From contig RSEE01000056.1 in NCBI GenBank assembly GCA_003971905.1, positions 1-64,000 on the forward strand: a DNA stretch of 64,000 bases, read 5' to 3'. The position numbers and the translations under genes were made by a program. This DNA is from Moniliella sp. 'wahieum'. Lineage: Eukaryota. Under the pieces are notes generated by a model. It searched no databases, was not told the origin of the DNA, and worked only from the letters and a program-made list of their open reading frames with translations. This document shows, one piece after another, positions 1,679 to 63,429 of the stretch; within the stretch, counting starts at the first letter, position 1, and every line of letters starts with the position of its first letter.

Positions 1679-4600
1679 GCTCGGAGAAGCGTGAGGGCAG
1701 CTCACACCCGCCCATACACAGCTGCTGGCCCTGGATGGCGTGTGGGGAGGGGGGGAGGGGAGGTGGTGGTGGTGGAGGAGACGGCTTGGCAGGTGGAGGG
1801 GCAGGCAGGCGCACACGCTCCTCTGCGGCTGGGTGTGCGGTTGCTTTCCCGATCGAGCTAGGCGTGTAGGGGCACCGGTTGATTCCGGCGTGTGGGCGGC
1901 TTGGGGTTGGTTTCAGGGCGGGCAGGTGGGCGCTGGACAGGGCAGTGCGGCCCAGGAAAGGGACGACTGGGAGTGTACTCAGCACTCATTCATGCTCAGT
2001 GAGTACTCAGCGTACTCAGCGCAGCTGCAACTAGAGACGCTCGACTCAGCACAGATTAGGCGCTGGGTCCGCGTGCGGCTACGGTTACGCGTTACGCGTT
2101 CCGGCACTGAAGTACTGAACACTGACTGAACGTTGAACGGACTGACCAACGGGTGACGCGGGACAGCAACTCAAACGGGTGTGCCCAAGCCCAGCACCAT
2201 CCATCATCCATCATCCATCAGCGCCAGCTCGCTGCGCTCATGCGCTCATGATGGAACAGGCACCTGGCAAGTGTGAGCCACTCGGTCGCAGCACAGAGCC
2301 AACGCCCACCAGCGCCCAACACACACACCCTGCCGCTTGCATCTGTCCCGTCTGCTCGCACTCGACATGAATATGAATATTCCACTGCCCCTCCGCCCTC
2401 CGCTGCCTTCCTCGGCGGGCTGGGCAAGGGCATGCGCCTCATGCCAGAGGGCAGAGGCTGCGGTCACATGCCATGTCACCCACACGCCCAAGAGGAGCGC
2501 TGAGCGTGCTGACGCATGTCATCATCCTCATCATTCTATGCGCCCCGCGGCCAACGTGGCGGCGGCGTGGGAGAGGCGGATGTAATGATGTTTACGTCCG
2601 TGTTGCTAGCTCCGCCATCGATCATCGATCCTCGATCTGATCTCCCATCCATGCCGCGTGTCACCTGTCACATGCATCACAGGCCACACGCCACGCGTCA
2701 CGCGCCACGGGTCACATGCACACGAGCCCGCACAGCCCGCGCAGCGCGAGTTACAGCCTGGCACATGTTACAGCGACCAAGCCGCTTTGTACGCCTCAGG
2801 CCCTGAGCAGGGCCTGAGGTTACGACCGACTGACCCAGTTACATTAATGAGGAAAGCTTAGCGCAGAAAGCTAGTCGTACTGACCAACTGGCCGCGCCAG
2901 CACCGGCCAACACTATACACGTACTACCTTCAGGAAAGTAAAACCCTCACTAACACTAGTCCCGCCAGCTTCAGCCGCTCGTCACTAGCTACTAAAAGTC
3001 ACTGCTTCGCTACATGTACCCCACCTCGATTGCTTCGTTCGTCCGGCGCGGCACGTGGACGAGCGTGGGGTGGGTGGGGTGGGGTGGGGTGGGCCTGCGT
3101 TCGGTTCTTGGATCTTACGTGTTACAGCACCCCCCTTCCCCACAGCGCAACGTTGAAATTCAACTTGAACGTTCAACGCTCACTGTGAGCCCTTTTGCGG
3201 CGCGTTTTCATTCGCCCACTGTTCCTGCTCCAAGCTCCACGCCGAGCCCGTCCAACCCATACTGCCCACACCACCTCATCAAAAGTTCTTTGAGTCTTCC
3301 TCTTTGGCCTTATAGCCGCAGACAGTCGTCTGAGGTCGGAAGAGAAGGCTCCCCCTTTGGCTGGCACATCCCTATGCCCACTCTGCCATGCGTCATGTCA
3401 TGCTTTCCCCGCAATTGAAAGACTGCACGTATAACGGGTACCGCGGTTACGGGTATTCTCCCCAACTTGTCCTCCCCCAGGCCTCCCGACAACGGCCTCG
3501 CATGTCTCGATGTCATGGCTGCACGGCCAATGGAGCCCTGGGATGCCTGGACCATGCCCGCCCGTGCCAACGTGTGCGATAGGAACTGTATGCGATCGGA
3601 CTGCCTGGGGCCACGGAGAGGGGGGAGAAGACGAGCCCCCCAAACTGAGCCAGAGTCTCTTTCGCTTTGGTTCTCGCTATTGCCTGGTCCGGTTCCGTCC
3701 GAATGCATCCGATTCCGTCCATCTAGCTATGCAATACAGTGACGATTGCGTTTGACGGATGGATAGCCTTGCGAGCGCCACTCAATCTGAGTACTTATGC
3801 ATTCATGCCCAAGCGGCAGCTCCAAGACGTACTGTATGCCCCAGGCTGGAAAAGAGAGGTATGGAAGGGTTGGATTGGCCGCGCGTGTTCGGACTTACCA
3901 AACCGATAGGACATCCCTTCGTCATGCCCACCAGCGCAAAGACCCGTGGGATCAAATGCAAAAAAGGTGTGGATCCACCAGTCGCAGCTTCATTTCCTTT
4001 AGCGCCCACCTCTCCCCGCTATATAGTAGTTGACTGCGCTACTATAGGGAGGTAAGGAACATCGGGGCCGCTGGGAGTGAATTGGCCGAACCCCGATGGT
4101 GGTAAAAAGTGCTGGGGAGACACGGAGGTGATGGGTTCTTGCTCTGAATTAAGCACTGGCTGCGCGCGATAGAAGCAAAGTCATTTGTAGTTCCTGTCAT
4201 ATCAACGTAGGGAGTGATAGCCTTCCCTAGTCCCTTCCCTGTTACCACATTTTCTCGGGCAGGTGGTGCCCAGCTTCCTCACCACCTCAGGGCTGTTCCG
4301 TGTCCTTTCCTTCTGACCTCCTTCCTCATTCTCGAGCACTGCGACCGACCCGCAGCCACCGCTTCTGCAGACTACTTGTCAAAGAGTGTCCTTCCCTCTC
4401 GCGCCTCAGTGAGGCCTCAGTACTCAGTACCCACATCATTTGAATGTAATACTCTAGTTCACCCAGCTGGGGAACAGATACACCCCCGCAGGCACCGCAG
4501 CATTGTGGGCCTATCGCCTCTCTGGCTGTCTCTGCCAATGTATCCAACGCTGCACCAAGGCGGTCTATCCTTACCACCCATCGAATGCTACGTGGCGCGT

Positions 4601-4872
4601 GGGCCATCTTGTCTTGACGCAGCACTGGTGCCGTTCTCTGGCACCAAGCAAAAGGAGTTCTACGTCGTGGTATCATTTACCAACCATGCACAGGAATTTG
4701 AATGAATTCGATTGTTGCTCCTCGAGCTGCGGGATGGAGAGGAGGAAGCATCACAGGTTCAAAGCATCCTCCAGTCCATCTTCAAACTCCCAGAGAGAGG
4801 GGAGGAATGGGGTGCATGAGAATAACGCACATGAATCCCAATCCCAACACCAATACCGACACCAACATTGTC

Positions 4873-6164
<1,292 letters not shown>

Positions 6165-6233
6165 GATGGCAGCGGATTGGAGGTTATTGGGGGAGTTGGG
6201 ACGGGGGGAGGAGGGGGTGGTGGTGGTGGTGGA

Positions 6234-7135
6234 TCAACGTTGAACGTTGAACGTTCAGTGAACGTCAAGCAATTATCGGTACCCCAGCAAAGCGGGAGCA
6301 GGCGCTATCGAGGCCGCGTTGCGATGTAGATGCGCACACTAGGCGCTGTCCCATCGCCTCCCATCGCGCACGGCCCAGTTGGATGATCGATGATCTCGAT
6401 GATCGACGATCGCCGCCGCCCAACACTGGGCCACTGTAGAAGAGGGCGGAATGCAAGAGGTCACTTCCGCCGCTCGCATTCCGCCCGTGTCAAATGGCGA
6501 TTGCGGATGGTGGGCTGGGCAGCGGCCGCATATCTGCTAGCGACTGCGTAATAAGATCTAAGACCCTGACGCGTGATGCGGCGCCATCGACCGTCGGCTA
6601 TCGGCCATCGGCCCTGCGGCCAGGCGATGATCGATGGCGATCTAATCGGTTGCTGATCTGAACAACTTGGACGGCCCATTCTGGCGACGTAATGCAGCTG
6701 GCGATCCTACGGATCAGCTGCAAGGCAGCCTTCAAGCTTCAGGCCAGGAGTGACTAGTGAAGCTTGAAGCTAGCTTGAAGGCAAAGGGGAGCCACAAGTC
6801 TTCAAACAGCGTCGGAAGGGAAGGAGACAGGAGAGAGAAGAGGGAGATGGAGTGAGCAGGGGGTGCACAGCCGACGGCCGAAGGGCCATGCAGGGGAACC
6901 CTAGCACTACCCTCCAGCACATAATGCAATGGTCACCGGTCACCGGTCACGGTCACCCTCTCAGCCTGCTGAGCCTGGGCGCGTGTCCAATGAACGACAT
7001 CGATTGATCAATGGTGGTACAACGAAACAAGACAGCGTTTTGCAGCCTGGAGCTGGAATATTGTTGAGCGTCTGGGCAAGCCAGACCAGGGTCAAGCTTC
7101 AAGCTTTAAAAGCTTCAAAAGCTTCAAGCTTCAAG
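6234..7135. repeat. Cluster of (TSA + 4-bp palindrome) heptamer arrays in the PEP4 / methyltransferase divergent intergenic region
   Basis: TCAACGT TGAACGT TGAACGT TCA (6234); TGATCGA TGA (6384); TCAAGCT TCAGGCC and TGACTAG TGAAGCT TGAAGCT (6732-6771); TCACCGG TCACCGG TCA (6933); TCAAGCT TCAAGCT (7092). Confidence 0.9.
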
Positions 7136-7864
7136 GCCGAGTGAGTGGCAAGCCAAAGTGCCAAGCAGCAAGAGCTAAGTGGAAGCTGGCGGTGCACGCA
7201 GCGTGGGACAGAATACATTTTAGGTTGTGGACCTACGGCCTTCCTCGGAACTTGGGTGGTGGGCGAGGGCAGAGTGTCTGGAGGCGGCGTGGGCTCTGTG
7301 GCAGGCTGTGGCTGTGGCTCGGCTGCTGGACCTGCGGTGCCTGCTGCCCCACCTGGCCTGCGCTAGTGACCAGCGTGAGCAGTGTGCTTGCGAAGCTAGT
7401 GACTATGACTCGTGACTCGCGTGACGCGTGACTGGACGAGTGACAGTGGCTACTAAGTACTAAGAGGAGATGGTGGGGGCACTGCAGGAGGGAAGCGATG
7501 AATCAGGGGTGACCGGTGACTCCACCGGCGACCGGTGACATCACATGACCCGCCATGCCCGGCCGCAAGCCTCGGGCCTGAGCCTGAGTTACTGCGTTAC
7601 TCAGTACTCCGTGTACTCACTCGGATGATTGGAAGCTCTGAGCGGCTGAGCGCTTGAGCGCAGGGACGACAGACCCTTCCGCACCAGTCTCCGTGCAAGC
7701 CAGCTGTGGCGCTCCTTTGGCTCACACTTGGCCAGCACATCGTCCCACTTCCACTTCCACTTCCACTCTCCCTCTCTCCCTCTCACTCCCTCTCCCTCTC
7801 CCTCTCCACCCCCACCCCCACCCCCACCCCCACCCCCACTCCGGACGATGCGACGGTGGTGAGC

Positions 7865-10166
7865 ATGAGCGGCCAGCGCGTCTCCCCCCCGTCGAGCCGC
7901 CCCGCGGCCCTCCGCACCCGCGCCCACACCAGATCCAGCTGCCCCCTCCGCCCCCCTCCGCCTTGGCTGTGTCTGCGCCCGCCTCCGCGGGCCAGCCACC
8001 GCCCCATCCTCTCCCACCCGCTCCTGCCGCCTTCCACCTCCGTCTCCCCCGCTGGCTCCCCGCCCCATACCCCACCCGCAGCGTTCCCCTCCACACACGC
8101 ATCAGTATCTTCCGCCGCCGCCCAGCGCGCTCCTACCCAATCGTCCCCACGAGTCCGAGGTAGACTACTTTTCCCTTCCACAGTTGAGTCCTACCGTCTC
8201 CACGGGCTCCAGCTCGGGCTCGGCCGCCCCATTCGACGCAGGCCCAAGCGGACTTGCGCTTTGTCCGGCCCCTCACCCTCAATTCCAACCAGCTCGGCCA
8301 ATTGGCCCAACGAGCGGCCTCGCGCAACCTCAGCCTCTCCACTTCGCTCTCCCCTTCCCATCTCCCTGCTTCCCCCACATCACTCTGGCCCACCGCCCGG
8401 GCCGGACAGCCACGCACCTGGCCTCAGTCCCTGTCGCCAGAAATGGACCGCTCGCGGCCCTCGTCCGCTCGCTCCTTGACCGCAAGGACGCCTAGTCGGA
8501 GTACCCTCTCGTCCACGTCGGTCCCAGGACCATCCACAACCGGTGGGCCCCGGGGGACATTCTTCGGTTAATAATCCTTCTTTCCCCCCTGCCGATACGG
8601 CGTCCCAGTCGTCCAAGCCACCACATAGCCCCTCCGATGCCCGAGACTCCAATTACATCTCGGTCTCTTCCCCCGCCGCCTCACTCGGATCCAGAGTTCG
8701 TCTCGGCGAGTATACCGAGACTGGCACCAACCTTTCCACCTCTCCCGCCGGGGTGGCGCGAGATGGTGCTCTGACCTCTGCTGGAGAAGCGGCGGATACC
8801 CTCGGTGCCCCGCCCGCGTTCTTTCAAGATGCCCCAGGTCTGCATGGGCTCGGCGGCGGGACCCAATTTGGTGCAGCTGTACGCAAAAAAGTGGGCCGAC
8901 ACACTCGATTTGTTGATTCAGGAGGTGCCCTGCCACCACGCGATCCAAGGCAGATCGTACAGGTGGCTGAGTATGGTGCGGTCAATGGAAGGGGCTATCC
9001 TTTGATTCAAGTCATCATCACCCGCCTGGCGGAAGCGATGGTAGAGCGCACACGCACTTCTTCCTCGTCCCCTGGTCGCCCACACGTTCCTGATGGTGAT
9101 GGTGCCACCGAGTTTTGGGTGATGCACTGCGATGCTCCCGGAACCGACTTTCGCGGATTGATGGCCGCGCTGGAAACCGATCCCGACTCTTATTTAGCCC
9201 CTGGGGGGCTGCGCGAACTCGTGGAGTCTCTTCTGATGGTGTTTACCACTCCTTTACGACCGGCCATTTGGAGCATGTGTAGCTCCCAGGTCAAGTATCG
9301 ACTTTGGTGATCCATCATGGACCTCCATTGGGGGCACAACCTCCATGGTCCGCCCCCGCCTCGGACCGAGCCAACACTGCCATTGCTGATACAGAGCTCA
9401 CCCAGTTCCTTCGGGCCCGGGCGACCGAGTTGAGGCCTGGGGCTCATTTGGTGGTCGCCTACATTGCCCGGGGCGAAACTCGTTCGCGTCCAACGTCCGT
9501 CTCCAGGCGGCGCCATACCGACACTCCAGGTCCGGACCACCTTGATCGCTCAGGATCAACGTCGGATGTATGGGCCGTCCTGGGCGAACTGCTGGGCCCG
9601 AGCATTCAACGGCTCGTGTCGTGCGGTATGCTCCAAGCTGACGTGGCACGCTATATGCTCACCCTTCCGCTGTATCCCCGCACCACAGCTCAGTCGGTTG
9701 CCACGCTGCGGGCTCAGAAGGACTTGTGGAAGGTTGATTGGGCTTGTGGGCTGGGCGACTACCCCAATGAGTCGGTTCCCTGCTCCAACTCCACCGATAC
9801 CCCTGCCCCAGAGTCCTCTGTACCCTCGTGCGATCCCTCGGCATGCGACTCGGCCTCGTTCGTCCAACCGCCTCGCCCCGTAAGCGATCCAGAACCGTTG
9901 CGCCTGCCCCACCCAGCCTGGGTCTCCTATAACGCGGGTGCACTATCGCGGGTGGCGTATTCGGAGCATGTCATTGCCCTGATCAAAAACCTTTACGAGG
10001 CGCATTGGCGCAAACTGCTAGTCGCGTGGACGACCTGAGCAAGGGCGCAGTGGCCTTCACCCTCGATTCGATTTATGATGTTCTGCAAACCCGCCTCGAC
10101 TCGCCCGATGTACCGCTGCACCGAATCGAGTTTGAGATCTGCATCTACCTCCTCCGACGCAGGTGA
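7865..10166 (+). CDS. SABATH / Methyltransf_7-like SAM-dependent methyltransferase-fold protein with a long S/P-rich N-terminus (frameshifted; start uncertain)
   Basis: ORFs 8543-9310 and 9304-10038 carry IVQVAEYGAVNGRG (degenerate motif I), FWVMHCDAPGTDFRGL (equivalent of the nDlPxNDF motif) and LTQFLRARATELRPGAHLVV (FLxxRAxELxPGG motif). The C-terminus reads IEFEICIYLLRRR* and ends at 10166. Confidence 0.65.
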
Positions 10167-13100: not shown

Positions 13101-14608
13101 TCGTCCTTTCCTCGCCCAACTCGACGACCCACGACCTTGGTACTCGAGGCGCCGAATTCGAACCAACAGTATCTCCCGATCCCGAGCGACGCACCTCGTT
13201 CTTTCTGCATTTGGGACTGGGACTGGGCAATCTCACCCCACCCCACCCTGGCCCGGCCCGGACCGCGCCCGCTCCTCTTCTTCCTCCGCCGCCCTTCCTC
13301 TCCCGCGGACAGGCGCGCCGATCCCGATCCCCTTCCCCTTCCCCTACTCCTCCCAGGGCAAAGAAGGAGAACCCTTTGGTCCCCTCGTCCCTGGCTCGCG
13401 CTCTCGCTCAGCTCGAGCACGTCCGCTGCCCGTTCCTGCCGTGCCACCGCACCAGCCCAAGGGGGAGAGCAACCGATACTGCCTCCGCTCGCTCCGTCTG
13501 CACGGTACGGGCACGGGCACGGGCACGACGGAAAAGGGCACGACGGCAACGAGGACGACGGTCCCCGCCTCGAGCGCCAAACACAGCTACACTGATCCCG
13601 TCCGCTGTGCTGTCTCTGCCCAGCCCATCCGTATCCCCGTGCTGTCGCCGTGCGCAACCAAGTCCCCGCGCTAGCCTGCCATGTCCATGTCAAACCCATC
13701 TGGATGGTGCCCCGCGTCGCTGCGTTGATGCCCTTGGTCTTGTTCTTGGCTCTTGGCTCTTGGCTTTGGCTCTTGGGCCTTGATCTGCTCTTGCCCTCAT
13801 GGACTGATGAGAACCATCTGCTTTCTTTGTTACCTCTTGCACTTGGACCACAAGTGAGCAAGGGGTGCAGTATGTATATTTCGCCTGCGCTCGTGCTGGG
13901 CGTGCGCTTTGCCCGGACCGGCTACATGCCCACCGGACCCGTCTTGGTGCCTCCCCCCCCGCCCCCTCTCACTCCGCCCCGATGATACCTCATTTCACGG
14001 TTCACGGTTCACCCCTCTCCCATTCGTCTTGATCGTTGATCCTTCGTATGTGTTTCCTCTGTTCATGTCTTTTTTCCTCTTCCCATGTCGATCCGGCTTG
14101 CCCTACCCCCCCTTCCATTACCTCCATTACTTCCATTCTCTGCCTCTTTTCCTCGATGCGGCATAGGCCAAAGGAAAAGGAAACAGGAAAAGGCAACGCA
14201 ATGCCAGGGCGAAGGTCGGCATGTATATAGTCTCCACCATTATACATCCACCAGGTCCGCATTCGTGCACTCAGGCGGGCGGCAAGCCCCCCCCCCGCCC
14301 TAATAGCTTCGATTGTGGTGAGCCCAGAACGACAGATGAGACTACCCGTGCGACCTGGGGAGGAACCAAACCCACCCGCTGGAACTACCGCATGGTCCAC
14401 CGCCACCCCTCGCTCTATCCTGGTTGGAGGAGGCGAGATAGTCGTCTTGTACATTCGCTACGGATCCTCCGTGCAAGCCAGGGGGAAATACGGCGGCGAG
14501 CAAAGGCGTCTCCGCCTGGGGCCGGAAGGGGGGATAAGGTCCGAGGAAGGAAGAGAGCGAGAGCACAAGACGTGCCGGTCCCTTCGCGTGGAACCGAGCG
14601 CAAAAAAA

Positions 14609-14696
14609 CGAATCCTGCCGGGGTCGAACCGACGACCATTACCATGACTTCCTGGCGTAGCCGGAAAGTAACACTCTACCACTGAGCTAAGGATCG
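14609..14696 (-). tRNA. tRNA-Arg(CCG) with an intron of about 16 nt
   Basis: Minus strand: GATCCT TA GCTC AGTGGTA GAGT G TTACT TT CCG G [CTACGCCAGGAAGTCA] T GGTAA TGGTC GTCGG TTCGACC CCGGC AGGATTC G, followed by a T7 Pol III terminator. D arm, T arm and anticodon stem all pair; the first acceptor pair is imperfect. Confidence 0.85.
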
Positions 14697-17600: not shown

Positions 17601-19067
17601 CCTTGCTGGCCCGGCCGACTTTCCCAATTACCACCCTTGCAGGCTGTTGGGGTCGAGGCAGTGCTGAGAACAAGGAGGTGAGTCACGCAACAACAAAACA
17701 ACTTCTCGCACCGCTCCCGCAGATGATTAATGATTGATGATAATGATACGACAGAAATACATACGTACGACAGCTACTGAGTACTGGATGGGATGTGGCA
17801 GGTGAGACAAGTGGCATGGCATGAGTAACTCACTGAGTAGTACGCAGTGTCAGGATAGAGTCATACATCAGCATCATGCTTCATGCTTCATGCGGGTAGG
17901 GTGCACTTAAGTTGCACGCTTGCCGCCGCCGCCAGGCTGTGACATGTGACGTGACTTGCAATGTTGAAGCCCCTTGCACAGCACAGGCTATGCACGCTTG
18001 TCGGACGCAGATGTTCCGCCGGCGCTAGCGCTCTGCAGGGGGGGTAGGGTTCAGACTGAGTACGTGGTCAGTCTGGTGCAGTCCACCGGCCCAGGCGCTC
18101 CTGCACCACGCGGCACGCCCGACAGGCTGCCCACGGTTGCACAGCGCAGGCTCCCTCCGAATCTCGTGTCTCAGAGCGTGCGTGTCACGCAAATGCCACC
18201 TCCCATGCATCCCAGGTGGCAGAGCCCCGAGACAGTGTGTGTTTGTGTACATGTCCCATGCATGGCAGGGGCGAGTAATTGGCGTTACTTTTTCAAGCTC
18301 AAGCTCAAGCTTAAGCTTCAACCTCGCATTCCCATTCCTTTTCGGATACGACCGAGATTCATCTATGTCTGGGTTTTCCCCTGGCCTCTCTCTATTTCTG
18401 TTTCTGCTGCCTGGGGCGTATGCGAAGCTGAAAAGAGCTGCTCGGAGAGAAAGAATAAAGCACAACATGTGTGAAAGAGCACAAGGTCACAGAGAGAAGG
18501 AGAGGAGAGAGAGAAGACGATGGATCTATTCAAGAGAGAAGCCCGTTGGAAGAACATAGGGGAGAGTCGGGTAGAACAGGGCGAGGCGCGAGAGGCGTGA
18601 TGTGGGATCAGCGGCATGCGTGATGCGCTGAGAGCAACAGAATATAGATCGTCAACCGTGATTTGCAGAGGCGTGTGCGTGCTGAGGCTCACCAGCGACG
18701 AGGGGGGGTACATACCCAATAAGCTTCAGGTTGGGGGGATATTGGTGGGAGGAAAATATAGTTTGGTGGGGTTCTTTCTTATTGGAAATCTTGAACTGGT
18801 TGTACTTATTGGGCGTTGGACTGCACTCCCCACAGATGGCTTGACTGTGTTGCTGAGGACGAGGGATAGGCCATTATTCCAGCAAGGAAATGGGGGGGGA
18901 AGACCAGGATTGGGGGTTATATTTATACACCTCTCCATGTCGCAAGCAGGTCGCCATTCAGCAACAGGTCTCATCTGACATACCCGCGACGGTCTAATAC
19001 GCGATATAAACATCGAATGTATAACTGCCAGCACAGTCCTACTATGGCAGATTTAGCAAAGGCATTG

Positions 19068-30734: not shown

Positions 30735-35960
<5,226 letters not shown>

Positions 35961-42564: not shown

Positions 42565-42588
42565 AAAAAAAAAAAAAAAAAAAAAAAA
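42565..42588 (+). repeat. Poly(A) tract
   Basis: Run of about 24 A in the ADH / makorin divergent intergenic region. Confidence 0.9.
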
Positions 42589-43417
42589 CGCACCACACAC
42601 GGTCAACGTTCCCGCGTGTGTTGGCGACCCCGACCCCGCGATAAGCGTAGCTACTAGTGATTCTATAGCGGCAACATGGGCAATGAAGATGGGGTATCGA
42701 GAGAGCGACTGGTGGCTGGTCCCGCAGACCTTCCATGAGACGGTGTTGAACCACCGGGTGGCTTGTGCTTTGGCCAACGTCCCATGTGAGTTCCTCCTCA
42801 GGCCTAGGAGTTCATCCGTTGTTTTCTTTCTCTTTCTGTTTTCCTTGTTCCGCAGCTTAGGCCCTGCTGGTGGCGAATCGCTGCTTGATGTTCCTCCGTA
42901 GTCATTGCTGGTTGGCTTAGACCATCATCTCCACCAGTGCGGTTGCATCACCATCGAGGACCATCCGGACTCCAGGTCTCATCAGACCGGAGCCACGTGG
43001 CATATAACAAAGGCAGATGTGAGAGGCCAGAGATGTTTGGACCACTAGTGTGGTTTATGCCCACACAGTAAAAATGGTGGCCACCTTTTGTTCACAGTAG
43101 GTGCCGACCGCAACCATCGAATCCACGTCCTCTGTGGTAGGATTGGAACGAATGATAATCTGATGTCAGACTTGATGTATCTCTCTCGAGAATGTAGATT
43201 TTTGGTCGACTGTTTGGTCGACTGTGGATATATGTGAACTTTTGATTTCCCGGCCGTCCGTGCGGGAGGAGGGGGCCTCAATATGTGCTAAGGTGTGTAC
43301 TTGCCGCCTGCGCGAGGCACTCCTACTACTGATCCTTGCTCGCCCTATTGCACTCTAGCAATCGCCCTCTGCTTTTGCCATGATGCCTTCGAGCCCACCC
43401 CTGCTTCTTGATACATC

Positions 43418-51740: not shown

Positions 51741-54700
51741 TTATTCCCCCTGCCACACAGCCGGCCAGGAAACAGTGAGCAAGGTACGTCGATTGACGTC
51801 TCTGCATTGGTCGACGGGAGCGTGGCGAGGAAAGCATCGTGTTCCTGACGAGAGGGAAAAGGCGGGTCAGTACCATGAACACACATGAACGCACGTGCTT
51901 GATGGGGGGAGCGATTCAGCTGCCCAACAAGCACACCAAAGCAGTTAACAATTGAACGTACAAGAACGGTCTGTTCATACTCGCGTAGCACCTGCACCGC
52001 GTACGGTTGCAGCCGCCGATCAAAGCCTTCCTCCGTACCGTCCAAACCGGGATAGGAAGGGAGGACAGGGGAGCTGCAACGCGACAAGGTGGGAGTTGAG
52101 GTGGGTGCAGGGCCGGAAGGAAGCAAGCGTGCTGCGGGCCCAGGGACCAAACTCGCCCGGTGAAGGAAGGCGCTGGCGGTAGCAGGGCGAAGGGAACGGT
52201 GGTGGGTAGGCGAGGGTGAGGGCGAGGGCAAGGAACAGGTTCGGATTGCAGGTCAAACGCAGCATTTTCCGCAAGGTGTTCTTCGGACGAGAAAGCGTGC
52301 CCCATTGCGTGCATCGGGGCACGGGCAGGCTAGAGCTGGAGGAGAAGGACTTGGAGCGCCGAAGGCCAGTGTCGGAAAGTGTGCTCGGGTACTGCTGGTC
52401 AGACCGTGGAGGCGTAGGCGGCGTAGGCGTCGAGCGTCCCCCATTGTCCTCACCAGGAGGCAGGGCAAGGACATCATCGCCTGATGCCTCCATTCCTGAC
52501 ATTTTTCGTAGACCAAGCAACCAGCTAGACCGGCGGCGACGCGGGACGGATTGAGAACGATCGATACCCAAGATTTTATCAGATTTGGACGACCAGGTCG
52601 CCTCCATTTTGGGCAAGGGCGTGCTGGGGCGTTCCGATGGTTCATCTTCAGGGAACAGCAGCTGCTCGTCCGAGGCCGACTTGATAGGATGGATGCGGGT
52701 AAGGTCGGCAACCGGGCCAGAATCGGAACTGGACGAGGAACTGCATGGGCCCGCCTCATCACGAAGCTGCTGGTACCGTTCCCGCACCTCTTCAAGCCGA
52801 CGGTGGAAAAGGATGACAATGTGCTGGGTTGAATGGCCTTCTAGGTCGTCCGGAGGCAACACGAAGTCGGTAAGGTGACCAAAGCGGTAGACGAGCACAT
52901 GGAGAAAATATGCACGGATAGTAGGCGACCAAGAAAGGAGAAGTTTAGTAAATTTCTCTAGAAAGCAGCGTTTCGTCCACCAGGCTGCGACGGTGGACAG
53001 GGGGGACATGAACATGGCAAAGTTGGTGTAGCAAAAGGAGATTGTCCGCATCAGCGTCACGATGTGGTCAGTCTCAAGCAGAATGCGACGGATAACAGAG
53101 ATGATAAAGTCCACATCGACAACGTGGGCAATTGGCAAGCGCAGCTTAGCCAGCGCTTCCATCAGGGTGTCAAGCCAATCCAAAAGACAAAACACACTTT
53201 GAACATCATGCAGCGAAGTACGCTTGATGAGGAGGGAAATGTGCCACTGGATACTGGGGAGAAAGAGAACAGAAGACGCTTGTTGGTTCGATGGTAACAA
53301 ATCTCCAAGGTGACAGCGTCAACCACCGCTGAGACGCAATGGTTCGTGGCAGTCACAGGTGTTTGGGTTTGCCTGTGGTGCTACCAAGGAGAACATTGGC
53401 TGTTTCACCCGCAGGGTTACTGAAGAAAATGTGTTAGCATACAACGGTTGATGAATGTGAGCATGACATGAGACAAGGTACTCACAAGGCTCCACCAGAT
53501 ACTTGCTTGGTAACAGATGTGAGTGATCGGTGAACCAACGAAAGGCTCTTTTGGTGAATCGAGGCGGTAACGTGGGCAAGTCCCGGGGCGCCAAATAAAA
53601 GGGAATGGCATTCAGAAGGGAGGTTATTGCGCACCAACCGATCAATTTGACGATGAACATTGCGCAAAAAGGAAAAGATTACCTCCGAGTCGTCCGATTT
53701 GAATCGACGGAGCCAGTTTCCTTCCATGGCGATTCCTGGCCCTTGTGCTGAACCAAGTATACCATGGGCCGGTTCGAGGTGTTGTCCATCCCGTTCTCCT
53801 CAAGACCTTTTGGACGGCGAGTAGGGTTCACGCGCGAGAGGTAGGAGCGGGCATCATCAAAGCAGATTGCATGTAAGTGCTCTGGGAAAAAGCCAGGAAC
53901 TCCTCCCATGTTGCGCCAGAAGGGCAAAGCTCCTTCCACTTTGTTTCCTCTCGGCTACGCGATCGAGCACGGCACGCGAGATGGGAAGAGCACCAAGAAG
54001 TTTGTTTGCCACACCTGGGATGCGCACCAAAGCCAGAGAGAGGAGCCGTCCACCAAAGACAAGGTTGGTGTGATAGACACCCTTGTGATTCAACTCGCCG
54101 ACGGCATATTCCAAGCAGAAGTAGAGCATGTCGTCGAATCGCTCCCGCTCCGCTGGTTCTACCTCTGGACTTTGGAGGGCATCCATGCTCAGATTGCGGG
54201 CCTCGAATAGAAGGTTGATGCTCTCCAACATTGCCATACGGTCCGCTGCCATTTGGGCTGTCTTGACGGACCGCATTAGTTCGGAAATCCAGTCGAGGAG
54301 CAAAGCACGGCGGGAACGTGGGTCATTGTACCGTTGGAAATCCTGATCAGACGAACGCTGCTTGGACGGTGTGGGGCAGCACGGGCTTGCTTGCCCAACA
54401 GGCGGTAGGGTCGGTGGCGAAGGCACGATCGGCGAAATGACCATGGCTGATACGACGGGCGAGGGAGGTTCGCTCGAAGTAAATTCAGACAGACTCACCG
54501 GCTTGCTCTGGGGAGTGGAGGGTGCAGATGGTAGATCGGGGCGAACCAGCGGTCGTTCTTGCTCCATGCGCAGGAAGGACTGGAGTACGAGACGTAAAAG
54601 TTTGGCCCTCTCAAATGAGCGGCCCCCGGCCTCTAGACGCTGGGTAGCTTGGCGGAACTTGGGTAGAGCCAGTTCAATCGTCGCCCATGCGATGGCTGGC

Positions 54701-55709: not shown

Positions 55710-56323
55710 TGGAGGTGGAGGTGGAGGTGGAGAGGGGGAGGGAGAGGGAAAGGGACAAGACCAAGCAGGACAGGGCGGACCGAGCGCAGGCCGTCAAGGT
55801 GAAGGCCCAAGGAGGCAGCAGGCGGGATGGAAAGCAGGAGTATACCGATGGGCTTGGCATCAGTATAGGGGCAACAGTAAAACCCAGGACTTGGCTTGGT
55901 GAACAAGAGGCTTGGAGAATGTCTGTGCTGCACTGGGCGCTGTGTCGTGGTGGGCAGTGGCTGGCTGTGCTATCTGGAGGTGGGACAGAGGGGCTGTGAC
56001 ATGTAGCTGTGAGCTGTGCAGTCCGACACAGCAGCGCCGCAGAGGCCTTAGCATCCGATCAGGTGCTGGTATCCGGTGCGTGGTGATCCGGTGATGGAGG
56101 GCATCGATGATCTCCGATGTCCAACGCCGAAGGGGACTAGGAAAGGCCAAGGAGCCCAAACAGGAAGTTCATATTTTGAAAGCAAGGCAAGTATACACAC
56201 TGCCCCAGCGCCCATCGGCACAGGGGCGCAGCAGGCCGCAGCCGCTTTCCTGAAAAGACCGTCTAATTCGGGGGTCCTCAGCCTCTCAGGCCCTTGGATC
56301 TCAGATCGGAGAAGTCCGCACAG

Positions 56324-56388
56324 TGACTAGTGACTAGTGACAAGTGACCAGAGTGACTAGTGATCGATGATCGATGATCACTGATCGG
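56324..56388. repeat. Longest 7-bp-period TGA-NNNN array
   Basis: TGACTAG TGACTAG TGACAAG TGACCAG AG TGACTAG TGATCGA TGATCGA TGATCAC TGATCGG. Confidence 0.9.
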
Positions 56389-56851
56389 GGGTCCGAACTG
56401 ACGTGCTGACCGCTGGTCGCACTCGAAGATCGATGATCGCAATGATCCCCCTTGTTGGCCGAGACGACGTACATCCGCATCACACACACCCTCCTACAGT
56501 CTACCCTATTCTACCCTGGTCTACAGTCTACCAGAGTCTGCCTCACTCGCTGGGGCAGGCTGGGACCCTCCAGAGGCTGTCAAGCCGCACCCGCCGCACA
56601 AGTCGCACGTCCCCCCTCCCACGCCAGGACAATGTGCTGCCTTCAAGATTCATATTCACGCGCCATATCCACCCGTCACGCCTCACGTGTTGCCAGGCTG
56701 CTGAGGCTGAGGCGCTGAAGCCTATACGGAGTACTGAGTACAACTGAAGACAGCTTGAAGCGCTGAAGCTCTGAGTTTGAACAGTCTTGAAGCTCTTCAA
56801 ACGTGAACCTCGTGTGGAGCTTGAACGCAACAGCTTGAACTTAATCAAGTC

Positions 56852-57011
56852 TGTCGGCCTCGCTACTACCACAGAATGTGAGCACTGAACGTCGTATTGG
56901 ACTAAGAAGCTTCTGCGACTGACTCGTCCAGAAGACTGGTGCGAGCTCGGAAGGAATGAAAGCTGACTCACGTGACTCAGGGTCCGCGCGGTCCTAGGAC
57001 GGATGTCAACA
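56852..57011 (-). repeat. 3' LTR (160 bp)
   Basis: Plus strand TGTCGGCC...GTCAACA, identical by eye to 61751-61910. Confidence 0.97.
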
Positions 57012-60000
57012 CCCCCGCTGACCGGAGGGCCCAGTCATGTGGACTGGATCCATCTCCTCGACGCGGAGTTGAGCAAGATGGCTTGTCAGGGCGGGACGGC
57101 CGAGAGGCTTGGTGAGGACGTCCGCTGGGTTCCTTTCGCCGGGGATGTGTACAAGTATGGCCTCGCCCGAGTCCACGTGTTGCCGTACATTGTGGTACCG
57201 GATCTTCAGCTCTCGGAGCTTGCCGGTGCTGCCAAATTTGTGGGCGAGATCGACGACAGACTTATTGTCGCAATACCAATGAATGGGTGTACCCTCGCCG
57301 ATGGCCCCAAGCTCGATCATGATGTTCTTGACATAGTTGGCGTCAACCAGTCCATCATATCCTGCCGTATATTCGGCGGCGGCGGTACTGGTAACGCTCT
57401 TCGGCTGAAGAATGGATCGCCACGACACCGGCACACCGTACACCATCAGTAGGCATCCAGATGTGGAGCGTGCCTGGATGGGATCTCCCGCCAAGTCGGA
57501 ATCTGTATACAGCGCAATGGCCGGTGCATCTGATGTTGGGGTCAACCTCAGGCCCTTTCCTCGAGTATGGTACAGGTAGCGAAGGAAGTCATCGACTGCT
57601 TGATGATGCTGCTGCGATGGGTCGGCAGCGGCTCTGCTGAGGGCCGTGATAGCGAAGAGGGAGTCAGGCCGGCCCATTCGTGCAGCCCACAGTCCCGATC
57701 CGATCTTCCCCTGATATGCCTTGCGCAAGGCTGGGAGGGATGGGGGTTCAGGGTCGGCACGGGGCGGTATCATCCGTACGGGATGTGGGAGAGTCCGGAT
57801 CCACGGGGCTTTGATGTGGTGCTTTGCCACCACTTCCTCGATGAACTTTGGTTGGCTCAGGTACAGCTCCCCACCGATCCGATCGTATTGGCATCCCAGG
57901 TGGTAGTGAAGGGGACCGTTACCACGAACATCAATGTGTGTGTTTATCTCGGCCATAAACTCCTCGTACTTTTGGTGTGACTTGCATGCGAGGAGCAGAT
58001 CGTCGGTGTGGACCGCCAGGAGGATCTGCTCACCCGGTGGTGCAGCGCGCACGAACAAGCAGGGCTCGGTCAAGCTTTGCGTGAAGCCGAGCTTGTCACG
58101 CAGCAGGTTCCGGATGTATCGTGCCCAGTTTGCTCCGCTCTGATGTAGCCCGTATAGACTCTTCTTGAGACGCCACACGCGACCACCCGCTTCGGGGAAG
58201 TAGGGGGGTGGGCGGATGTAGACTGCTTCTTCGAGGGGGGCGTTCAGGTACGCTGCATTGACGTCCGCCGAGAAGAGGCCAAACTTATACTTCTCGGCCA
58301 GCACGACGAGGGTCAGGATGGCAGGTGTGCGCACCGATGGTGCGAACGTCTGGCCCCAAGTCTCGGCCGATTGTTGGTGTCCGCCCGCGACAAAGCGCGC
58401 GCGGTGGCGCAGGAACCGGCCCTCGGCGTCCGTCTTTGTGGTGATGCGCCATAGTCCTATGAGGATTTGTGCACCCGGTGGTGGGTACGTAGCCTCGTAG
58501 GTGCCGTATCGCGCGAGTGTGGCCACCTCGTCGGCCATAGCCTGCTTGACCATGGCAAAGGAGGGGTGAGTCTCGAGACCCTTGAGCGTCTTGGGAGCGA
58601 GGGGTACGCCATCCTTGGTGAGCTGAACCGTGTCCGGGTGGATGGGTGCGCTGAGAGCAGTCATGGCGGCGTATTCGGGAGGTTGAACTGTGTCGGCAAA
58701 CGGGGGGGCGGATGTGTCAGGTAGGGGGCGGGCGATGCCGATCTCTGGTGCGGCGCAGTGGGGCGTGGCGGCTGCAGCACGAGCATGGTAGGTCGTGTCG
58801 GTGGGGTCGTCAGCGATTGGGAGTGTGTGCAGGTCGAGGGAGGTGCGGGTGGTGCGCTGGCGGAGGGGGTAGCGGCGCGGAGGGGGGTGGTGGTGGGAGC
58901 GGGTGTCTGGGGTGTGGCGGCGGTTCGGGGCATGGGTGCTGCCGCGGCTGGCGGAGTAGGGTTAGCGTCTTTTTCACTGTCGATTTTAATTTGAGGTGAT
59001 TTGGAGATGTCGGGTGGGAAGTGGTCGGGGTGGAGATGGGGGTAGATGGCGTTGCCCCATTTGTACGGTTTCGACCAGCGGTAGGTGAAGGTACCCAGGG
59101 ATGGTTGGTATGTGGCGAAGAGCCATCCCTTTGATCCGCGCTGATGGTGGTATCCTACCAGCATACCTTCCTCTGCCCGCGCGCTGAGCTTGTGCTCGCG
59201 GCGTGACTCGGGCAGATGGAGGTATGCAACGCGGCCAAAGGGTTGCATCGGTAACGAGTATGCGTGGCCTTTGTATCGCTCAAATCGCGATTTGTTGTCT
59301 TCCCCGGATGTTTTGAGTGGCATTTGGTTTTGGGTGAAGCACGCAGCGTGGAGGCTGTGTTCCCACCAGTCCGACGTCGGAAGACCTGTACCCAAGAGCA
59401 ACTGCCTTGCACGAGTCGTTATGGTTCGGATGGCACGCTCAGCCACACCGTTGCTAGCACTCTGCCCCGGGATTGTCCGTTCTGACGTGATGCCTTGCTC
59501 GTCCAGAAAAGGTTGCAGTGCGCTTGTCAATTCGGGGGCGTTGTCCGTGCGCAAAGTCCGCAGCAGTCTGTCCGGGCCGTAGCGTTGCTCCCGCAATATG
59601 AGGTTCCGCAGTTCCTTCGTTGCAGCGCCCTTTGTCGGGATCGCTGTGGTGAAGACGTACCGCGTGAAGTCATCAACGGCGACGAGGGCGTATCCGTGCC
59701 CCATGCCGGTTACCCGGGGGAGGTCTACTACGTCGACGTGGAGGACCTCGAAAGGTCTTTTGGATCGGAGGCGGTCCCGGCTCGGATGGGGCGATGCTGT
59801 CGCTAGTGCCACCGCGCATGTTGGGCAATCCCACTCTGAACGACAGAGGGAGATATGCTTGGCTGTGACGCGGAGGCCTGCGGTTTCCGATCGTGTAAGC
59901 CAGGGGAGGAGGTCGATGGCTGCGTGGTTCCAGCGTTTGTGGGCTTTAGAGACGTGGTCCAGGGCCAGGGATGCTGCGAGGGAGTTTGGGGTTGAGGGTG

Positions 60001-60448
60001 GGTCGGCCGGTTTGATCGGTTTGGTCGCCATGGCCCGCAGGGGTGTGGGTGGCGTTCGCGGGTTGTGTAAGATCGTGAATTGATAGTCACTGCCGGTTAC
60101 TTTTCGTAGGGTGGATCCTGGGTTACCAAGCCAGATACCCTTCTGGTGTGGGGCGAAGTATGATGCGATTCCGGTGTTCGACAGGTGTGCTACACTGACG
60201 AGATTTCGGCTGAAACGGGGCATGTATAGGCTGTTGGGGAGTTTTATCTCCATTTGGTGTCCTCCTAAGCATCGGATACGGATTGTGGCCGTGCCTCGTC
60301 CTTCCGCCTTTACATGTGTCCCGTTAGCAACCTCTATCTCGTCGTCGCAAGGGGTCATGGATGTGAAGACGGATTTGTCTTTCCAAATGGATGGGAATGC
60401 CCCACTGTCATATAATGCCCGGATGATTCGCATTTCGCCCCCGAGTTC
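57006..60448 (-). CDS. pol: Retrotransposon Pol (protease, integrase, reverse transcriptase, RNase H), with one frame break in the IN-RT linker
   Basis: PR LYDSGA; IN HKRWNH...CPTC, LHVDV, LRTDNAPE, SNGVAERAIRT; RT RARFVAGG, ADVNAAYLNA, LKKSLYGLHQSG, VHTDD; RNase H YTDSDLAG, STAAAEY, CDNKSV, NPADVLTKPL. The stop codon lies in the first bases of the 3' LTR. Confidence 0.95.
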
Positions 60449-61696
60449 CTAGTAGTCAGCTGTGCCCGCATCAACGTCAATCACTTCAGACTCGGGAGAG
60501 CTCGCTCTCTGAGCGACGTGAGCGTTGGCTCGGCCTGGGTTGCGCGGAGGGACAACAGGTTTATTAGACGTCGCGCTGCGCCAGGGTTGGTTGGTGCGGT
60601 CTTGCCCCTTGGTCTTTGTGTCCGCGAGGTTGTCGTCGCCGGCTTTGCCCCCGCTGGAGTTTTTTCCCCCGCTGGTGGGTCGTCCCCCGCTGTCGGGTCG
60701 AGTCCAAGGCGTTCCTCCGTTGACCGGCTTGCCTCCGTTTCTCTTCCTTTCTCCACCGGGATACGTGGCGGCTGGTATGTCCATCACGGCCTGCCGTAAC
60801 TTGTCTAGACTCGAGCGCTCTTCACGCTGGCGAATGCTCATGTCGCGTAAGCCGAGTAGGATCCCAGTGCGTTCCTGCTCTTCCGTAAGTGGGATGCCCG
60901 CTCGCGTCAGGCTTGCACTGATCTCTTCCATGTAGTCGAGGTAGTCTCGACCCGATCGGTTTCCTTGGTCGGCCGAAAAGTAGCGAATGAGTAGAGGCCC
61001 TCTGTTTGCGGTAGGCGTATATCCATACCGCTGACGCAGCATGTTCAGCGTGTCCTGGGTGCATGATATTTCGTGGTGGGTGCGGATCGTCCGGAAGAGG
61101 GTTGACGGCATGGCTTCCCTAAGAAGGTTGTGCAAGCGTCTGTCGAGGTCCTCGGTGAAGTAGCGGGAGCTGCGACCATTCTGGACGACGTCGCTTGCGT
61201 GGGGGTGGGCATCTGTTATCGCGAAGAGAAATTCGTCTTCCCAAGCGCTGTAGGCGGACGGGTCTTTGTTCAGATCAGGCCACTTGATATTCTTGGTGGG
61301 AGACTCGCGTAGTGATCTGTAAAGGTCGTACTCGGGTCGCGAGGCTGCGCCTGTAGGTGCCCCCAAAGTTGCGTTGGGTTGAGTTTCCATTTGGTGGATG
61401 TTTTGCACCACAAAATTCGTAGCCCGTCGAACCCAGTTTGTCGTGATAGACGTAGGTTCGTCCTTCCATCCAAGCCACTCGGCTCTGTCGTGTATAGCTC
61501 TGTTGATCTTCTCTTTAACGACATCGATGTCGTTCGTCTTCTTGAACCACAGGTGCGCTTCGGCGCAAAGCATCATGAGTTCCTCGTTGTCGGTGCCAAT
61601 CGGTGGCGGATCGCGACCGGTTGGTGTCCAGTAATCGCGCTTGTTCACCATTGTGGTGTCGCTGACCGAGAGATCGGTGTTAGCGTTGGCGCCCAT
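60449..61696 (-). CDS. gag: Retrotransposon Gag
   Basis: Long ORF directly after the 5' LTR; first ATG at 61696 (MGANANTD), with the frame also open through the LTR. YSAWEDEF, TLNMLRQRYG and DYLDYMEEISASLTRAGIPLTEE..ILLGL are copia gag-like. Ends in TAG at 60451-60449. Confidence 0.85.
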   Translation of the reverse strand: MGANANTDLSVSDTTMVNKRDYWTPTGRDPPPIGTDNEELMMLCAEAHLWFKKTNDIDVVKEKINRAIHDRAEWLGWKDEPTSITTNWVRRATNFVVQNIHQMETQPNATLGAPTGAASRPEYDLYRSLRESPTKNIKWPDLNKDPSAYSAWEDEFLFAITDAHPHASDVVQNGRSSRYFTEDLDRRLHNLLREAMPSTLFRTIRTHHEISCTQDTLNMLRQRYGYTPTANRGPLLIRYFSADQGNRSGRDYLDYMEEISASLTRAGIPLTEEQERTGILLGLRDMSIRQREERSSLDKLRQAVMDIPAATYPGGERKRNGGKPVNGGTPWTRPDSGGRPTSGGKNSSGGKAGDDNLADTKTKGQDRTNQPWRSATSNKPVVPPRNPGRANAHVAQRASSPESEVIDVDAGTADY

Positions 61697-61750
61697 GGTT
61701 GTGGGTGTAGTTTTGGCCAGCTCAGGGATGAGCAGATAAGGATGTAACTC

Positions 61751-61910
61751 TGTCGGCCTCGCTACTACCACAGAATGTGAGCACTGAACGTCGTATTGGA
61801 CTAAGAAGCTTCTGCGACTGACTCGTCCAGAAGACTGGTGCGAGCTCGGAAGGAATGAAAGCTGACTCACGTGACTCAGGGTCCGCGCGGTCCTAGGACG
61901 GATGTCAACA
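61751..61910 (-). repeat. 5' LTR (160 bp)
   Basis: Identical by eye to 56852-57011. Confidence 0.97.
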
Positions 61911-63429
61911 TCCTCCGCGAATACGGAGTACTGCGAACTGAGTAGTCACTTCGTGGGCAGTGAGAGTCTCCTGTCGGACGAGCTAGGCATGCCCCCTTAC
62001 AATAAGGACCTGCGGTCAGCCGGTCAGCGCTCAGCGGGGTTGCGTTGACATGCGTGGACGCGGGCCCTGAATATTGAATCATCAATCAGTGAGCCAGCTT
62101 ACTCGGACCAGTGTTCCGGACGATTCGGGGCAGACGCTTCTGAGTCCAATTCGACGTCCAGTGCTCACGCGCACAGGCTCGGAGGCTCGCATTCAGGGGA
62201 GTGGCGAGGCCGACAGCGGCTCAACGCTCACCAAGCGTGAGCGCGCTTCACTTATAGTGGTAGTATTACATGAGCCGCAGTGGGGCAGGGTGCTGATGGC
62301 TGATGATGATTGAGCTGTGGATCAACTTGGGCCATGCGCATGCTGCCTTTCGGTGGGACGCTAGACGCCATGGTCGGACATTGGACGCCTGGTGGTCGGG
62401 GGTTAGGGGCATGGGGCATGGGGCATGGGCTGGGGCTGGGGCATGAGGCTGGGGCTGGGGCTCAGCAGGCAGCAGGCAGCAGACCCATTGGCCCAGCTAG
62501 CCAAGACACCGAAGTGGAGTGGGCGCCACGGCACCTGCCTTGCCGCTCAGCCTGCGCGTAACCACATGTGACCATGTGAGGTGAGATGGGAGATCAGAGA
62601 CTCAGATCTGCCTAGCTGGGTTCTGGGGATCGGATGTGTGATGCATGATGCATGATGCATGATGCCATGTCGATCCCAGCTTGGCAAGCGGCGCAATCGT
62701 TAATCGGCACAGGCCTGGCACGGCGGCGCAGTGGTGCCGATCAGCCCTGTATCCTGATACATGATGCTGAGCCGATGATCGATGATCAATGATCGGGAGG
62801 GAGTAAATGATTACTGATTGGCAATTCCATGCCACAGATCTCGCGCAGTGTTCGTAACTCTTGGCCTCGAAGATCTAAGAAAGAACTAACCTGCGCCTCA
62901 GGCTGAGGCTCAGCCGTCAGCGTGTCAGGCCGAGGGCTCAGCCTGGGCAGACTGAGCGCACGTCGGCGGCAGCGTCAGGGAGCACTGGGCAATCAGTTAC
63001 TCCATACTCCGTACTCCATACTCACGCGTGATGTGTGACGTGTGACGGCTGACGCCGTGCAAGCCACAGTTTCGCCCCCACTGGCCGGCGGTGCGGCCGG
63101 CGGCGTTGGGTGGAGCGCCGGCCCCGGCTCGGGCAGGGGGGCATGCCTGCAAGTGCTGGGTCATCGAAAGGTCCGGCGCCACATTGCACTACACTGCTGC
63201 TGTGCCTGCCGAGTAATGGCCAGTCGGTCTAAGGTGGCCCCCTGCCCCGGTGGTGGTCCCGTGGTGGCCCAGTGGTGGCTCTGGGTGGACCATATACTCC
63301 CCTCCACACACCCACCGCACTCGGAAAGCCAACTCGCCTTCCCCCCTCCATCTCCTCCCCCCCTCCCTCTTCCTCTTTCTCCTTCTCCCCCCCTCCCCCC
63401 CCCCACGCTCTTTCACCTCCCTCGCCGCC

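Follow-up and report, generated by a model that had tools for sequence, protein, structure and literature searches.

What process fills the intergenic DNA of a fungus with short repeats that keep one period and one geometry while their letters change from tract to tract? This question is raised by a stretch of 64,000 nucleotides (nt) from Moniliella sp. 'wahieum' (positions 1 to 64,000 of contig RSEE01000056.1, assembly GCA_003971905.1; henceforth referred to as the window), which is nuclear, fungal DNA of 58% G+C. A first-pass annotation had described tracts in which a triplet T-N-A (N, any base) is followed by a 4-bp palindrome, the whole repeating every 7 bp, and the pattern was present at each of the 18 positions that it had listed (18/18). 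Here we show that the palindrome is a flank joined to its own inverted copy, and we suggest, with somewhat less than even confidence, that the tracts are scars of breaks with a 7-bp stagger centred on TNA that were repaired via hairpins, for which a cut-and-paste transposon would be the simplest agent. Throughout, S stands for C or G, W for A or T, c' and d' for the complements of c and d, and rc for the reverse complement.

Counted as TSA-N4-TSA with the same triplet on both sides, the motif with a palindromic core occurs 60 times in the window against 1.7 (order-1), 1.7 (order-3) or 4.7 (order-5 Markov model) expected, and with a non-palindromic core 76 times against 22-33 expected. The excess of palindromic cores therefore persists after Markov correction, and so does the special standing of the 4-bp spacer: at spacers of 0-3 and 5-10 bp the enrichment of paired TSA did not exceed ~2.7-fold, and that of the palindromic classes ~2-fold. 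In the 19.4 kb outside open reading frames (ORFs) of at least 150 amino acids, with the background trained on that DNA only, 54 motifs were found versus 1.1-2.3 expected, and none of 100 simulations yielded more than 6. Exact arrays with two or more copies likewise peak at period 7, where there are 68 versus 3.35 in order-2 Markov simulations, compared to 11 at period 8 and 9 at period 9. A quasi-palindromic unit, xyT-N-Ay'x', makes up 35 of the 68 period-7 arrays (~11% expected), and the non-symmetric period-7 arrays are also in excess (33 versus ~3); at other periods symmetric units are at or below chance (29/105 at period 5, where 31% is expected, 2/86 at period 6, 0/11 at period 8 and 0/9 at period 9). 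The palindromic share of the cores is 44% (60/136) for TSA and 47% (9/19) for TWA, compared to 0-11% for 27 of the 28 other strand-merged triplets and 2/10 for ATA/TAT. Many palindromic cores are indeed in use, as the first-pass annotation held, although its figure of 14 out of 16 was a slight undercount: 15 of the 16 occur, roughly evenly, and AATT is missing.

This symmetry does not extend beyond the tracts. In DNA outside the period-7 tracts, ANNNNT hexamers (183 versus 184) and xyTNAy'x' heptamers (167 versus 159) are not in excess, and perfect palindromes of at least 10 bp show no general excess in the window (74 versus 66 expected). The symmetry is therefore a product of the event that makes the repeat and not of the sites or of the genome, and a global palindrome-making process is ruled out.

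The core had been taken to be free, provided that it was palindromic, and here the flanks decide otherwise. We classed each TNA-pal4-TNA (pal4, a 4-bp palindrome) according to whether the 2 nt that flank it on either side keep to the 7-bp period. The bare 10-mer without such a lag-7 match was found twice versus 1.62 expected, whereas the 2-nt match was present on the right only in 26 cases (0.07 expected), on the left only in 21 (0.13) and on both sides in 20 (0.03). Since the whole excess of palindromic cores carries the flank match, the elementary unit is a 12-mer, TNAcd-d'c'-TNAcd or its mirror abTNA-b'a'-abTNA, in which two 5-nt direct copies (TNA and two bases of flank) stand on either side of the rc of their outer two bases. 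Because the unit repeats flank bases around their own rc, the core is templated and not free: the 'palindromic 4-mer' is flank plus inverted copy. A flank end followed by its inverted copy is the signature of a DNA hairpin opened off-centre, which leaves palindromic (P) nucleotides. Tc1-type transposon-end remnants (a 3-bp TNA duplication plus 2 nt from each inverted repeat) would put 10-mers between arbitrary flanks and are excluded by the count of bare 10-mers.

The source of the two filler bases places the triplet within the unit. Among TNAcd-NN-TNAcd repeats, 46 have rc(cd) as filler and one has rc(TN); among abTNA-NN-abTNA repeats, rc(ab) fills the gap in 41 and rc(NA) in one. The two bases distal to TNA thus supply the filler 87 times and the proximal two twice. 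Repeats of bTNAc have a P-like filler in 3 of 63 cases, and in lag-7 runs of length 5 the TNA stands at the end of the repeat 28 times and in its middle 3 times. Because the filler is distal-derived and TNA sits at the ends of these runs, T-N-A is the centre of a 7-bp unit abTNAcd, and the palindrome arises at the outer edge of that unit; a 5-bp duplication with P nucleotides from either end was rejected on the same counts. To see the unit's boundary, we analysed the 49 isolated units, leaving out the 20 of 69 with a second palindromic-core unit next to them at 7 bp. Isolated units with a right match have two mismatches on the left side in 16 cases, one mismatch in 6 and a full match in 10. 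Decay of a 14-nt duplication would leave mostly single mismatches, and the boundary is therefore sharp and not decayed. Two thirds of the isolated units are 12-mers, for which the mere duplication of already symmetric sites is insufficient. TNA as the centre is strongly preferred (about 50-fold per site) without being an absolute rule, because 34 flank-rule events fall on the 60 other triplets, against 67 on the four TNA triplets.

The central base is mostly copied as it stands. Within arrays the same N is kept in 69 of 81 steps, and C and G are exchanged in 12. The flips between C and G that had been described thus exist, but the variation is mostly one of strand orientation. Writing of the tracts by fold-back or template switch, which had also been put forward, fits in that half of each core is the rc of the adjacent flank, as a hairpin would leave it; it does not fit in that the N of the new TNA is usually a direct and not an inverted copy, and in that palindromes show no general excess. 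The unit and its variants can be seen in the following tracts, all read on the plus strand.

6234-6257, plus strand: three-unit chain TCA-ACGT-TGA-ACGT-TGA-ACGT-TCA, with N flipped at both ends.
6751-6767, plus strand: chain of two different cores, AG-TGA-CTAG-TGA-AGCT-TGA-AG, in which each core is the outer flank dinucleotide plus its rc.
6933-6949, plus strand: (TCACCGG)2-TCA array, followed by an extra copy with a 1-nt deletion.
16549-16565, plus strand: (TCACGCG)2-TCA array.
16615-16631, plus strand: (TCATGCA)2-TCA array.
28221-28237, plus strand: TWA chain TTA-CCGG-TTA-AGCT-TAA.
36601-36617, plus strand: (TCACATG)2-TCA, within an exact array at 36599-36621.
45535-45551, plus strand: (TGATGCA)2-TGA array.
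56324-56377, plus strand: (TGACTAG)2-TGA, then TGA-CTAG-TGA-TCGA-TGA-TCGA-TGA, two cores in one tract.
62639-62662, plus strand: the longest chain, (TGATGCA)3-TGA, within an exact array at 62639-62665.

The grammar is specific to this DNA among the fungal sequences that we compared. From 80 metagenome loci fetched as carrying relatives of the window's PEP4 gene (best identity 75%, with no close relative among them), we used as controls the 37 fungal loci of at least 4 kb (507 kb). In these, 28 of 422 cores are palindromic (6.6%; chance 6.25%), and period-7 arrays number 4.8 per 64 kb compared to 68 in the window. Twelve-mers of the distal type number 8 in the 507 kb versus 87 in the 64-kb window; these 8, from unrelated fungal contigs, are themselves a few-fold above the random model.

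The units form 72 chains: 59 of a single unit, 10 of two units and 3 of three. Non-ORF DNA has 0.067 units per available TNA and the cluster regions have 0.128, from which random re-hits would give a second unit in 0.13-0.26 of cases (2p) and a third in 0.20-0.38 (3p). As the fractions found, 13/72 (0.18) and 3/13 (0.23), fall within these ranges, the chain lengths fit random re-hits, and replication slippage is not needed. Chains with different cores, such as that at 6751, show the flanks expected if a second hit at a neighbouring TNA took its P nucleotides from the other flank. Half-palindromic cores are also in excess (outer pair only, 37 versus 5.5 expected; inner pair only, 18 versus 6.2), and many of them correspond to CpG-type transitions of cores with a central CG (TCGA to TCAA or TTGA, GCGC to GCAC or GTGC); to judge from their sequence, they look like neutral decay.

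Besides the 12-mer, other junction forms are found. Exact duplications of non-symmetric 7-mers with a central TNA number 11 versus 0.12 expected, and perfect 10-bp palindromes with N flipped number 13 versus 2 expected. A period-9 form, abTNAcd-b'a'-abTNAcd, in which both copies are complete, occurs at five loci; in a test made post hoc, a P-like filler was present in 5 of the 7 central-TNA loci of the form X7-N2-X7 (two copies of a 7-mer X7 separated by 2 nt), compared to ~12% by chance. A period-11 form, TNA-pal4-pal4-TNA, was counted four times versus 0.10 expected.

2005-2020, plus strand: period-9 form ACTCAGC-GT-ACTCAGC, a non-symmetric 7-mer with central TCA, the filler being the rc of its first two bases.
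6389-6404, plus strand: period-9 form GATGATC-TC-GATGATC.
28461-28476, plus strand: period-9 form TGTCACA-CA-TGTCACA.
37279-37294, plus strand: period-9 form GATCAGC-TC-GATCAGC.
42275-42290, plus strand: period-9 form ACTCATC-GT-ACTCATC.
6765-6778, plus strand: period-11 form TGA-AGCT-AGCT-TGA with flanks ct and ag, which fits P nucleotides kept on both sides.

At 62985-63020 and 7584-7619 there are, in addition, period-8 to period-9 repeats of TACTCC- or GTTACTC-type units around T-N-A that lack palindromic cores, and these may be further products of the scar process or of its decay.

The tracts lie mainly between genes. ORFs of at least 200 amino acids cover 53% of the window and hold 5 of the 69 motifs. 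The copia element (56847-61913) holds no motif, as the first-pass annotation had noted for the retrotransposon, and it serves as a motif-free internal control between the two parts (56059-56545 and 61946-63038) of an intergenic region rich in motifs. TGA and TCA orientations occur side by side inside single intergenic regions, with 37 TGA and 23 TCA among the plus-strand same-N pairs. T-N-A triplets make up 5.4% of non-ORF DNA (1066 in 19.7 kb) versus 3.2% under ORFs of at least 150 amino acids (1409 in 44.3 kb), which is consistent with a process that adds TNA. Four clusters stand out.

6164-7603: the densest cluster, upstream of the PEP4 gene, where 1.44 kb of non-ORF DNA hold 14 TNA-pal4-TNA units.
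15779-17967: a second cluster of 14 units, partly under probably spurious 150-amino-acid ORFs at 16006-16837.
27346-28418: a cluster made up of period-7 arrays plus 3 units with a palindromic core, 3' of the gene for class-II fructose-bisphosphate aldolase.
41228-43411: 8 clustered units upstream of the gene for zinc alcohol dehydrogenase (ADH).

Since the third of these lies 3' of a gene, the arrays are not confined to promoters.

We propose, tentatively, the following course of events. A nuclease would cut with a 7-bp stagger centred on T-N-A and so give rise to two copies of abTNAcd; in the simplest case, a DNA transposon would duplicate its 7-bp target on insertion, and its departure would leave hairpin-capped flanks, as with hAT, MULE, Transib and RAG enzymes. 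Host repair would open a hairpin ~2 nt off its tip, and if one opened end were kept (two P nucleotides gained) and the other trimmed back to TNA (two lost), the total length would stay at 14, so that the period would remain 7 whatever the opening offset. Other outcomes would be a plain 7-bp duplication, both copies with two P nucleotides between them (period 9) or P nucleotides on both sides (period 11), and a deeper opening of the hairpin would flip N and yield perfect 10-bp palindromes. Each scar would make a new TNA, at which later hits could lengthen the tract or add a second core; point mutation would afterwards erode the scars, and they would pile up where they are tolerated or the DNA is accessible, that is, in intergenic DNA. 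We infer the insertion of 7 nt at a single abTNAcd from the anatomy of the tracts alone, and the agent likewise. Fungi offer an experimental precedent. It is also possible, at a likelihood that we again place a little below one half, that this lineage carries a very active, undescribed family of hairpin-forming nucleases or transposons with a 7-bp, T-N-A-centred stagger, whose scars have hit ~7-13% of intergenic TNA sites.

Several observations weigh against the scar hypothesis. Its dominant product needs an exact balance of two nucleotides gained and two lost; P-like fillers over all registers of X7-N2-X7 are at chance (9/89); and the flanks are fully consistent in only one of the four period-11 cases, that at 6765. 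No transposase was matched by Pfam in the 14 of 35 ORFs of at least 250 amino acids, or in the 106 of 117 ORFs of at least 150 amino acids, that were scanned; of the 11 outside the latter scan, 6 were covered in the former, and the 5 left are shadow ORFs over PEP4 or copia. A scan of the window for target-site duplications of 3, 5, 7, 8 or 9 bp next to 12-nt inverted ends gave chance-level matches: of its three 7-bp candidates, about the number expected by chance, the one with central TGA consists of TGA repeats itself. A 6.2-kb candidate element at 56700-62908 was rejected, its 'ends' being CTGAGG repeats. The duplications made by hairpin-forming elements measure 8 bp for hAT, ~9 bp for MULE and 5 bp for Transib, and we know of no hairpin-forming superfamily with a TNA-centred 7-bp duplication; Galileo and 1360 of the P superfamily do make 7-bp duplications, and to our knowledge no use of hairpins has been ascribed to them. 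With about one scar for every 300 bp between genes, the density is also far above that of any transposon footprints that we know of, and slippage may have had a part in the multi-copy arrays.

The very high density makes a host nuclease or a domesticated transposase a serious rival. Such a process, without any transposon, could consist of a domesticated transposase or other nuclease that cuts TNA in open chromatin, or of polymerase snap-back or template switching, in which the polymerase would copy 2 nt of the opposite strand and then re-copy TNAcd. It would account for the same 12-mer and its distal filler, and the hit rate of 0.07-0.13 per intergenic TNA, together with the lack of any DNA transposon found in the 64 kb, fits a constitutive host activity better than a parasite, as do tracts on both the 5' and 3' sides of genes. 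We nevertheless regard it as rather unlikely. A fixed register and a T-N-A centre are typical of target choice by transposases, we know of no host process that has both, and the present data identify no such enzyme. Pure polymerase error, moreover, would not be expected to favour TNA (67 events on 4 triplets versus 34 on 60) or period 7 alone.

Expansion by replication slippage of hairpin-prone quasi-palindromic units, which would make the tracts heptanucleotide microsatellites, could explain why period-7 arrays reach 3.9 copies and why non-symmetric period-7 arrays are enriched too. One flip-containing tract also folds well as single-stranded DNA (z = -3.6), but 5 of 6 folded arrays did not exceed shuffled sequences in stability (z from -1.7 to +0.3). 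Slippage adds whole units, whereas the commonest form here is 1.7 units long (the 12-mer) with sharp boundaries; symmetric units are not enriched at periods 5, 6, 8 or 9, chain lengths are short and geometric (59/10/3), and the TNA centre is left without a reason. As the main source of the tracts, slippage is therefore improbable.

It is just about as improbable, if not marginally more so, that the tracts are a selected cis-regulatory or chromatin grammar, in which a bZIP-like dimer would bind TGA or TTA half-sites 7 bp apart or nucleosomes would be excluded. TGA and TTA are indeed the starts of bZIP half-sites, and tracts concentrate in intergenic DNA by the 5' ends of genes (6164-7603 for PEP4, 41228-43411 for ADH). 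The bare site without a flank match is, however, not enriched, the 15 cores in use (of 16) have roughly even shares, both orientations occur within one region, decay products are abundant, one cluster lies 3' of its gene, and the 37 other fungal loci do not share the grammar. The dimeric protein on TGA/TCA half-sites that the first-pass annotation had envisaged is not supported, on similar grounds, namely the unenriched bare site, the mixed orientation and the common half-decayed cores.

Three TGAs at a 7-nt period would end stray translation in all three frames, and TGA and TAA are among the triplets on one strand; that the tracts serve as such stop cassettes is nonetheless very improbable, given that 59 of 72 chains have just two TNAs, that TGA and TCA are mixed within regions (37 versus 23), and that the palindromic core and flank rule would stay unexplained. 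An assembly or base-calling artefact is no less far-fetched, because the tracts combine 15 different cores, a precise flank rule, avoidance of ORFs and graded decay, and no type of sequencing error known to us produces a structure of this kind.

Known systems resemble the tracts in part. In V(D)J coding joints, which are somatic, programmed and confined to vertebrate lymphocytes, P nucleotides come from a hairpin opened ~2 nt off its tip, and, as in the window, a 2-nt inverted copy of the flank end makes a 4-bp palindrome of any sequence; unlike the tracts, these joints have no target duplication and no tandem period. Tc1/mariner footprints (TA, nucleotides of both inverted-repeat ends, TA) share the order of target duplication, 4-bp palindrome and target duplication, but have one fixed core that comes from the transposon ends and stands between arbitrary flanks, whereas the window has 15 cores set by the flank. 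PIF/Harbinger and IS5-group elements make 3-bp T-N-A or T-W-A target duplications and thus share the target triplet. A 3-bp duplication, however, predicts arbitrary flanks and no 7-bp unit, and neither bare TNA-pal4-TNA nor TNA-TNA at spacer 0 (41 versus 38-42, at chance) is enriched. With heptanucleotide microsatellites the tracts share short tandem 7-bp arrays in non-coding DNA, and they differ from them in that the 12-mer is commonest, the unit is bound to T-N-A and a flank-derived palindrome, and the chains are short.

Excision footprints of hAT elements, resolved through flank hairpins, are likewise similar. The elements differ in making an 8-bp duplication, compared to the period of 7 with central T-N-A in the window, where none of the 11 period-8 arrays is symmetric; the window also differs from hAT hosts in that no element was found in it and in a scar density far above any known to us for such hosts. 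In a study of Ac/Ds footprints (PMC5873905), duplicated target copies remain, P nucleotides are inserted on one side with a short deletion on the other, and few footprint types predominate, much as in the tracts, where copies of the putative target flank one-sided P-like nucleotides and bases are missing on the other side. The hairpins of hAT excision form on the flanking DNA, according to PMC5499845. Short direct repeats in rDNA spacers have been read as remnants of transposons (Bendich and Rogers 2023, PMC10319768), which comes closest among published ideas; that visiting transposons can fill non-coding DNA with short direct repeats is a notion common to both cases, and the difference lies in the generic short repeats of that paper as opposed to a specific, statistically sharp junction signature here. 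A full-text literature search, which did not cover the bodies of subscription-journal articles, returned no account of this grammar; nor did it turn up any report that heptanucleotides are in excess in these fungi or that a fungal element makes 7-bp duplications. It also gave no match for a TCACGAA-type 7-bp repeat of Ustilago, which the first-pass annotation had named as a possible related case, so that this was not confirmed. Hairpin-type footprints are already known, and what would be new here is the register, the target and the genome-shaping density.

The window otherwise contains the following genes and elements.

4873-5991, minus strand: PEP4-type aspartyl protease ORF.
14609-14696, minus strand: a single tRNA gene of 88-90 nt (Rfam, 40.5 bits; anticodon not named by ARAGORN).
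19274-20540, minus strand: DUF3419 gene (Pfam).
28724-29212, minus strand: class-II fructose-bisphosphate aldolase fragment (Pfam).
32775-34259, minus strand: HAMP-repeat histidine kinase (Pfam).
39937-40890, minus strand: zinc alcohol dehydrogenase gene (Pfam).
46494-48984, plus strand: CRAL/TRIO proteins (Pfam).
52023-53318, minus strand: DUF1765 gene (Pfam).
56847-61913, minus strand: copia-type retrotransposon with 168-nt long terminal repeats (LTRs) that are 99% identical.

The best named relatives of the PEP4 ORF are from Tilletiaria anomala (79%) and Tilletia (76-77%), which suggests that the fungus may belong to the Exobasidiomycetes or to the Ustilaginomycotina more broadly; protein matches at 94%, 89% and 82% identity, of which the first is the highest overall, imply that closer relatives exist. 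In the histidine kinase DNA (32775-35190, minus strand) a 58-nt segment recurs five times at a spacing of 273-275 nt, one HAMP pair per repeat, an arrangement typical of group III (Nik1-like) fungal kinases. The tRNA probably carries an intron, and the Rfam and ARAGORN scans of the window found nothing beyond it. The copia element is young; the 13-nt string ATACGGAGTACTG occurs at 56724-56736, 123 bp upstream of its 5' LTR, and again at 61921-61933, 8 bp downstream of its 3' LTR, and is too distant to be its target duplication. Long polypyrimidine tracts of hexamer repeats, (CCACTT)n, (CTCTCC)n and (CCACCC)n, are found at 7745-7839, 8334-8366 and 13280-13345, at the start of the ORF block 7658-10038, and purine-rich mirror tracts at 1727-1800, 6178-6232 and 29550-29616.

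If the tracts are scars, a single genome would give access to tens of thousands of neutral junctions made by end joining in nature, and with them, without experiment, to the offset of hairpin opening, the balance between P addition and trimming, and the target preference of the enzyme. The finding would point to a transposon type or a domesticated nuclease that cuts in an unusual way, over 7 bp and centred on T-N-A. It would furthermore show that one break-and-repair process can write a large share of intergenic DNA and seed short tandem repeats, which has a bearing on how promoters and microsatellites arise, and for annotation it is a warning that regular non-coding 'motif grammars' can be mutational and not regulatory. 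If a very active family of such nucleases or transposons is indeed at work in this fungus, it would be the dominant source of insertions in the genome and a steady supply of new TGA-rich intergenic sequence, and from the whole genome one could read how hairpins were opened and ends joined in the wild.

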